NCBI RefSeq assembly: GCF_009931435.1
Contig: NZ_CP043414.1
DNA from: Escherichia coli
Lineage (GTDB): Bacteria; Pseudomonadota; Gammaproteobacteria; Enterobacterales; Enterobacteriaceae
Strand: one strand, 5' to 3'
Length of the DNA stretch: 64,000 bases
The position numbers and the translations under genes are program-made. The number at the start of each line of letters is the position of its first letter. Within the stretch, counting starts at the first letter, position 1. The notes beneath the pieces are model-generated. The model did no database searches and was not told the origin of the DNA. It saw only the letters and a list, made by a program, of their open reading frames with translations. Positions 41,150-42,070 of the stretch are shown in pieces.

Positions 41150-42070
41150 TTAGTTAAACAGCTTATCAAGCTCAGCAAGAGGTAAATTTGCCATCTCTGC
41201 AACGTCTTCCCGAGACATTCCTTTACTCAGAAGACGCAGGGCGAATTCTTGCCTTTCCTCCTGTCTTCCCAGCTGAATCCCCTTCTCAATCCCCTTCTCA
41301 ATTCCCTTCTCAATTCCCTTCTCTTCAAACCACTGCGCCAACGTCATCATAGACTCCCCTCCCGTTTCCCTGTCTCTCACCACACCATAAAACAAATCCG
41401 CTTGTTCAGTATGACCGCGTTGCAGCATATAGTTTTGCATGGCAACTAACTGACTTCCGCTAGTGTACCCTTCGTCAATCAGCGTGACCAGTTGCTCCAG
41501 CAATAACATTAAGTCGCGCTGGCGAATATGTTTTTGCAGCAGTTCGAGAATCGCAATCCGCCGATGTTGCATGATTTCGTCATCCGGTGTGATAGTGATA
41601 TCCACCAGCGGGAAAGGACTGTTATAGACGCGTCGCGCCAGCTCCGGCGAGTAAAACATATCAAACCAGCACATTGAGAGCGGATAAGGTGTGGCCTCGC
41701 CCTGATAAAACAGAATCGGCACCACCAGCGGCAGCTTATCGTGATCTGCCTCCAGATGCCGGTGCATGGCAGCAATAGAATAACGCATCATGCGAAACGC
41801 CATTTTTTTATCCGGCTTGCTTTGGTGTTCAATCACAACATGTAGATAGCCCGTATTACCCTGCATTTGCACGGAATAGAGCACGTCAGTGCTGTGCCCT
41901 TTCAGGCTTTCTTCAATAAAACTCCCCGACTCAAGATGCAGCGTGTCGAGGTCACACAGTTCGCGTAGCTCCGCTGGCAAATGGATATCCAGAAAGTCGC
42001 GAGCCGTTTCCGCGTGCATTAAAAATTGTTTAAACACCGCATCATGCGGTGTGGTACTCGGTGCATCCAT
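41150..42070 (-). CDS. rpnC: recombination-promoting nuclease RpnC (YhgA-like, PD-(D/E)XK family)
   Basis: 306-aa ORF recognised as YadD/RpnC; lies between panC and panD as in K-12. Confidence 0.8.
   Translation of the reverse strand: MDAPSTTPHDAVFKQFLMHAETARDFLDIHLPAELRELCDLDTLHLESGSFIEESLKGHSTDVLYSVQMQGNTGYLHVVIEHQSKPDKKMAFRMMRYSIAAMHRHLEADHDKLPLVVPILFYQGEATPYPLSMCWFDMFYSPELARRVYNSPFPLVDITITPDDEIMQHRRIAILELLQKHIRQRDLMLLLEQLVTLIDEGYTSGSQLVAMQNYMLQRGHTEQADLFYGVVRDRETGGESMMTLAQWFEEKGIEKGIEKGIEKGIQLGRQEERQEFALRLLSKGMSREDVAEMANLPLAELDKLFN
41278..41325 (-). repeat. in-frame 12-bp tandem repeat inside rpnC
   Basis: CCCTTCTCAATY repeated about 4 times on the + strand, encoding EKGIEKGIEKGIEKGI. 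Confidence 0.85.

Follow-up and report, generated by a model that had tools for sequence, protein, structure and literature searches.

The rpnC locus

The window, the whole 64-kb stretch of Escherichia coli DNA analysed in this study, carries the gene rpnC (yadD) between panD (42344..42724) and panC (40078..40929). The features assigned to the gene and to the spacer downstream of it are as follows:

41150..42070, minus strand: rpnC coding sequence (RpnC-L, 306 aa), full-length PD-(D/E)XK nuclease/toxin, from the open reading frame list, Pfam/NCBIfam and RefSeq orthologues
41450..42052, minus strand: PD-(D/E)XK (Transposase_31/YhgA-like) N-terminal domain, residues 7-207, with D62, E81 and Q83 present
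41354..41363, minus strand: Shine-Dalgarno-like GGGAGGGGAG for an internal start, from sequence reading
41345..41350, minus strand: internal in-frame ATG ATG, predicted start of RpnC-S, from sequence reading
41150..41350, minus strand: nested RpnC-S frame of 66 aa, in the same frame as RpnC-L
41276..41323, minus strand: (EKGI)4 array, RpnC-L residues 250-265 and RpnC-S residues 10-25, from the sequence and Tandem Repeats Finder
41240..41275, minus strand: QLGR QEER QEFA segment in which the four-residue periodicity goes on, from allele comparison
41153..41239, minus strand: HTH-like C-terminal tail LRLLSKGMSREDVAEMANLPLAELDKLFN, from a weak Pfam HTH_7 match and the tail pattern in other phyla
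41063..41085: terminator-like hairpin TGGCGCTACGGCTGATGGCGCCA with a T-rich tail, between the convergent rpnC and panC
40975..41018: core of an ERIC/IRU element within the spacer 40930..41149, from exact, back-to-back matches to the ERIC1R and ERIC2 primer sequences

The name rpnC given in the initial annotation was borne out by domain matches, synteny and orthologue names. PF04754 was matched over profile positions 1-201 of 203 (E=2e-87, 292 bits against a cut-off of 21) and the Rpn family model TIGR01784 with 289 bits (cut-off 52). The order panD-rpnC-panC recurs with RefSeq gene names in 27 E. coli loci, and the locus was found by megablast in 5,424 of the 5,426 complete E. coli genomes, where the RefSeq name of the orthologue is rpnC. 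The allele of the window is uncommon, with only two records reaching 99% identity or more across the full gene and most others at 90-95% (megablast). Direct reading of the window protein recovered the acidic residues D62 and E81 of the PD-(D/E)XK domain together with Q83, and the two acidic residues hardly vary in a cross-phylum alignment of 66 Rpn-type proteins. Judged by sequence, the catalytic residues are retained in RpnC-L. No other Rpn paralogue was detected within the 64-kb window by tblastn.

In many strains, a separate small rpnCS-like gene (rpnCSs, 65-81 aa) with variable four-residue repeats of its own (FQKG, RQEV) lies downstream of rpnC. It was located at 2490-2687 in locus L003, 2502-2717 in L004, 2442-2651 in L009, 2485-2682 in L139 and 2485-2730 in L140, and a remnant of it is annotated as a partial "transposase" in CFT073 and ATCC 25922. 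The window has no downstream rpnCSs; its 220-nt spacer between rpnC and panC (40930..41149) instead contains an ERIC/IRU element, recognised by the ERIC1R and ERIC2 primer sequences. The spacer differs between strains. It measures 73-82 nt and lacks ERIC in K-12-like loci, whereas in O157 and L007 the ERIC carries a further insertion and the length is approximately 280-300 nt. The sequence of the hairpin is kept in all E. coli spacers read. In CFT073, the panC beside rpnC (L145, 2776-3628) is a frameshifted pseudogene in the RefSeq record.

Elsewhere in the window, two long tandem repeats were detected at 62289..63103 (period 303 nt, 2.7 copies, 80% matches, score 876) and 59154..59385 (period 96 nt, 2.4 copies, 86% matches, score 331). 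The first of them probably represents the three lipoyl domains of aceF, an assignment assumed from the position on the K-12 map with respect to the pan genes. Two RNA families scored above the Rfam gathering score, namely the HtrA 5'UTR thermometer RF02700 at 8082..8127 on the minus strand (77 bits) and the ES036/CssrF sRNA RF02751 at 50277..50318 on the plus strand (41 bits).

The EKGI array in the window

The array reads in the order c c b b, that is GAGAAGGGAATT twice followed by GAGAAGGGGATT twice, which corresponds to the minus-strand codons GAG AAG GGA ATT (two times) and GAG AAG GGG ATT (two times) and thus to four EKGI units. This codon reading upholds the earlier description of about four tandem 12-bp units on the minus strand that encode (EKGI)n near the C-terminus, with two amendments. 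The array does lie at the position first given for it, 41278..41325, though in a register 2 nt off the codons, and its true extent is 41276..41323. The repeat is also in frame as described, though not perfect, with unit types that differ by one synonymous base.

Tandem Repeats Finder assigned the array a period of 12, 4.0 copies, 97% matches and a score of 82, the top score among the short-period arrays (≤33 nt) of the window. Only the two long-period arrays (periods 96 and 303) scored above it. Because the exact self-match runs at lag 12 are 15 and 20 nt long at the array and never exceed 9 when the window is shuffled 100 times with dinucleotides preserved, the array lies far beyond chance expectation. 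By allele comparison, the adjoining zone at 41240..41275 is the position that a second variable repeat, (RQEV/RQEE)m, takes in other alleles.

The nested RpnC-S frame

An internal in-frame start and ribosome-binding site for a small C-terminal protein are predicted within rpnC of the window. The Shine-Dalgarno-like GGGAGGGGAG is spaced 3 nt from the ATGATG (41363..41345). Ten of the first 12 E. coli loci carry it unchanged and the remaining two with one base altered, while the residues MMTLAQ at the internal start were kept in all 27 E. coli loci read. Among the E. coli alleles, RpnC-S was 50-86 aa long. Published RpnS repeats begin 8-20 residues after the start and differ in number between strains (PMC10400941); the array of the window begins at RpnC-S residue 10 and is therefore inside this range. 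A simple consensus scan of the minus strand at 41351-42070 returned no sigma-70 promoter-like site. In K-12, an internal transcription start has been reported for the short transcript, with dRNA-seq evidence cited, and translation of RpnCS from within rpnC has been shown experimentally (PMC10400941).

An AlphaFold2 model of RpnC-S, built from a 37-sequence alignment, reached a mean pLDDT of 76.5. In this model, one unbroken helix (residues 13-42) runs through the array and two short ones (47-53 and 58-65) come after it, the pLDDT over the repeat being 57-70. Foldseek comparison of this model with the PDB gave nothing significant, the best match (E=0.7) being to generic HTH domains and the RpnA-S structure 7TH0 not being recovered. 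A PDB sequence search with RpnC-S likewise returned weak HTH-like matches only, 7TH0 not among them. The Pfam HTH_7 match of the tail is weak, covering residues 270-294 with E=0.004, below the cut-off.

Unit number across E. coli

Units were counted in 5,426 complete E. coli genomes with diagnostic queries composed of 30 nt of 5' flank, n units and 17 nt of 3' flank, at E-value cut-offs that admit end-to-end matches only. Counted as assemblies and not as independent lineages, several strains being present repeatedly, the genomes were distributed over the following classes:

0 EKGI units: 1,436 genomes
1 unit: 283 genomes
2 units (K-12 and O157 type): 3,403 genomes, the commonest state
3 units: 26 genomes
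4 units (the number of the window, rare): 12 genomes (9 + 3)
5 units: 13 genomes
6 units: at least 40 genomes, including CFT073, Nissle 1917 and ABU 83972
7 units: 37 genomes, including ATCC 25922 and clone D
9 units: 1 genome

A further 32 genomes in the 80-90% identity band have six-unit variants or eight units, and the counts leave about 141 of the 5,424 rpnC-bearing genomes unclassified. Among the 3,403 two-unit matches, three were to records labelled as plasmid. The classes were confirmed by reading 27 loci, and the exact ccbb array of the window was found in two other genomes. The initial expectation that copy number varies between strains therefore holds, with 0-9 units over the 5,426 complete E. 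coli genomes, and an identical number everywhere is excluded.

All 28 alleles read keep an intact open reading frame of 290-326 aa. The tail length does change with the repeat, as had been proposed, but length is not the whole effect, as unit number sets the pairing of toxin and antitoxin (PMC10400941). In the 1,436 genomes with zero EKGI units, the array is replaced by the second in-frame 12-nt repeat, (RQEV/RQEE)m, of up to approximately 8 units. This repeat directly follows the EKGI zone. It is long in alleles without EKGI units, and its number varies between strains (L003, L004, L010, L011).

Changes of the array between alleles

Six unit types were distinguished, of which a (GAGAAAGGGATT), b (GAGAAGGGGATT), c (GAGAAGGGAATT) and d (GAGAAAGGAATT) all encode EKGI, and m and n encode EKGM. 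As the variants a, b, c and d are mutually synonymous, the EKGI peptide is under constraint. Closely related alleles differed by whole units. Outside the array, L012 (ab) and L016 (aab) are identical throughout the gene and L013 (ccbb) differs from L017 (cbb) by 1 SNP. The allele family of the window, recognised by its QLG...ELDKL tail, contains the arrays cbb, ccbb, cbbb and ccbbbb.

A further series was found on one haplotype shared by six strains, which are identical over the 873 nt of rpnC outside the array and over 1,480 nt upstream. It comprises the arrays ccmb, ccmab, cccmab, ccccmab, cccccbb and ccccccmab. The changes in this series are limited to the number of identical 5' c units. 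Strains on the haplotype are SCU-485 with 4 units, UPEC 26-1 with 5, CFT073 and Nissle 1917 with 6, ATCC 25922 with 7 and C25 with 9, and the series also covers the loci L015, L139, L145, L143 and L146, which show whole-unit differences and nothing else in the gene. Because an identical haplotype carries six arrays, the array evolves faster than the approximately 2.35 kb around it. Whole-unit changes in a homogeneous run form the pattern that would be expected of replication slippage or unequal exchange. Slipped-strand expansion and contraction, as first suggested for this repeat, is supported by these alleles, since differences of whole units alone fit slippage.

Recombination also reshuffles the array region, as the mosaic structure of the alleles indicates. 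The 5' 747 nt of the window differ from L001 at 1 site and from L013, L014 and L017 at 8-9 sites, although the latter three have the array type and the tail of the window. Similarly, the 3' parts of L015 and L018 are identical, with 35 differences in the 5' part. It could accordingly be argued that copy number is altered mainly by homologous recombination or gene conversion, among rpnC alleles, the downstream rpnCSs and rpn paralogues, and not by slippage. Such mosaics are clear, the second rpnCS-like gene present downstream in many strains is a possible donor, and recombination initiated by Rpn itself was raised as a possibility by Zhong et al., who stated that the mechanism of expansion needs study (PMC10400941). 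Nevertheless, imported tracts are expected to bring flanking SNPs, which are absent from the six-array series on one haplotype. The downstream copies have FQKG and RQEV units, not EKGI, and the window has neither a downstream copy nor an Rpn paralogue in its 64 kb. We thus regard recombination as an unlikely main source of the changes in copy number, with slippage or unequal exchange as the preferred one.

EKGI arrays in other bacteria

A degenerate DNA pattern for (EKGI)4 matched more than 120 stretches in contigs from one genome per species. The longest arrays had nine exact units, and among the hosts were Brachyspira, Lachnospiraceae, Leptospira, Bacteroidales, Cardinium, cyanobacteria and Planctomycetota. 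TIGR01784 was matched by 57 of the 65 complete open reading frames that bear exact arrays of at least four EKGI units, from many phyla, and the same 65 frames were matched by PF12784 (PDDEXK_2) in 28 cases, PF04754 in 18 and DUF4351 in 7. A similar short HTH-like tail comes after the arrays, which lie 33-77 residues from the C-terminus.

The repeat region of the EKGI-bearing proteins was matched by FliH models of NCBIfam in 54 of 66 cases, and Yae1_N, which contains a GX3G motif, matched 10. The window protein itself matches the FliH model weakly, with E=0.002 and a score far short of the cut-off. In this protein, glycine occupies positions 252, 256, 260, 264 and 268, so that three or more GxxxG segments adjoin one another in a region modelled as helix. 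By its residue pattern, EKGI is a GxxxG-type repeat and a family-wide feature of Rpn tails.

Several genomes contain multiple Rpn-type genes of differing exact EKGI number (among L019-L138). In Brachyspira hampsonii, arrays of 5, 5 and 8 units occur on one scaffold (L019-L021), and Cardinium hertigii has arrays of 6 and 9 (L093-L094). Some EKGI arrays are found in stand-alone open reading frames of 58-130 aa (among L019-L138, e.g., L134-L138), which resemble free RpnS genes.

Proposed function of the repeat

The rpn genes have been described as genes within genes, in which RpnL is the full-length DNA endonuclease, toxic and inducing SOS, and RpnS is a small C-terminal protein from an internal start that binds and blocks RpnL (Zhong et al. 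2023 PNAS, PMC10400941). Both contain a hypervariable four-amino-acid repeat, which in RpnS is part of the long helix that opens the three-helix bundle. With RpnC of K-12, one extra KGIE in RpnCS or RpnCLS alone abolished neutralisation, and its presence in both restored it (PMC10400941, Fig. 4D). Anti-phage activity was shown for the plasmid-borne RpnP2 and not for the chromosomal RpnC (PMC10400941).

The array of the window very probably is this hypervariable repeat of the RpnC toxin-antitoxin (anti-phage) module, where it would set the pairing of RpnC-L with RpnC-S. The gene would produce RpnC-L, the full-length PD-(D/E)XK DNA endonuclease, and from the internal Shine-Dalgarno sequence and ATG the 66-aa RpnC-S, which would bind and neutralise RpnC-L. 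The EKGI units would be situated in the long first helix of the C-terminal domain common to RpnC-L and RpnC-S, in agreement with the continuous helix modelled at residues 13-42. Four residues per unit correspond to approximately 6 Å and 40° of helix. Each unit would put a glycine at every fourth position and so produce the GxxxG pattern, the face of which may serve as the helix-helix contact. Since one stretch of DNA encodes both toxin and antitoxin, gaining or losing a unit would alter the two together and the pair would stay matched, while both partners would become mismatched to versions with other unit numbers. Replication slippage or unequal exchange among identical 12-mers would be the main route by which the unit number changes, and phage pressure may drive the diversification.

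A flexible tail whose length varies neutrally, without functional effect, is the minimal form of the initial tail-length proposal and would also agree with a reading frame that is kept in all alleles and with the existence of strains with 0 to 9 units. This reading is very improbable, as it is opposed by the loss of neutralisation when one unit is added to RpnC-S or RpnC-L alone (PMC10400941), by unit variants that differ almost only synonymously, by the retention of the identical EKGI peptide at this position in the Rpn family even in distant phyla, and by the modelling of the repeat segment as helix and not as coil. Least credible of all is that short repeats were misassembled, for although assemblers can collapse or expand tandem repeats, the arrays of 12-108 nt are below typical read length and independent assemblies of the same strain agree, with all listed records of ATCC 25922/Seattle 1946 spanning 131 nt and all those listed of Nissle 1917 and CFT073 spanning 119 nt.

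A more specific version of the pairing function can be offered tentatively, and we consider it possible rather than probable. Here, the repeat would act as a glycine-zipper ruler, with the GxxxG face as the contact between RpnS and RpnL and the unit number as a lineage-private length code that is rewritten by slippage and used as a device across phyla. Polar slippage of identical 5' units might rewrite such a code faster than point mutation. Defence nucleases of the Rpn family in different bacterial phyla might share the exact EKGI device, the mechanism of which might resemble that of the FliH helices with their variable GxxxG repeats.

With pairing set by unit number, the repeat amounts to a natural specificity dial in a toxin-antitoxin and anti-phage nuclease, in which one slippage event re-keys both partners, the dial itself being the published part. 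The standard strains offer a ready allelic series on one background for studying cross-neutralisation against unit number as well as the rate of slippage, the latter a question that Zhong et al. named as needing study.

Comparison with known systems

The repeat is like the GxxxG helices of FliH/YscL in helix pattern, as these have glycine at every fourth residue with Glu, Lys and Gln enriched between and vary widely in repeat number between organisms (Trost & Moore 2009, PMC2674601). The deca-GX3 motif of Yae1/Lto1 (Pfam PF09811) likewise has glycine at each fourth helix residue. Neither group shows homology to Rpn outside the repeat or a toxin-antitoxin logic, so the likeness is one of motif only. 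In addition, the repeat number of FliH differs between species and not between strains, unlike that of rpnC.

Simple-sequence contingency loci of Haemophilus, Neisseria and Campylobacter resemble rpnC in having an intragenic tandem repeat that mutates faster than its surroundings, probably by slippage. In contrast to these loci, the unit of rpnC is a multiple of three, which gives a graded change of the helix and no frameshift on/off switching. A phase-variable contingency locus is ruled out for rpnC by the 12-nt unit and the intact open reading frame in 28 of 28 alleles read.

A further parallel is the specificity subunit of the type I systems EcoR124I and EcoR124II, in which a TAEL repeat of 2 versus 3 units changes specificity (cited in PMC10400941). 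The TAEL repeat is, like EKGI, an in-frame 12-bp, four-residue repeat within a helical spacer and belongs to a defence system. The number of TAEL units sets the spacing of the DNA target, whereas the number of EKGI units sets the pairing of toxin and antitoxin proteins.

The RpnL/RpnS system itself (RpnA-E; RpnA-S structure PDB 7TH0) is directly represented in the window, which has the same gene rpnC and the same nested small protein. The published RpnCS alignments give bracketed repeat numbers, and the "KGIE" inserted there is the EKGI of the window in another register (PMC10400941). GxxxG, FliH and slippage are all unmentioned in PMC10400941, and a search of the literature after 2023 for the mechanism of the Rpn repeat returned nothing relevant. 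The variable repeat in rpnC is already known and functionally explained (Zhong et al. 2023), and nothing essential differs between the published system and the window, which represents a rare four-unit ccbb allele without the downstream rpnCSs. New in relation to Zhong et al. are the genome counts, the range of 0-9 units, the series on a single haplotype, the EKGI arrays across phyla and the likeness to GxxxG helices, which together extend the published system incrementally.
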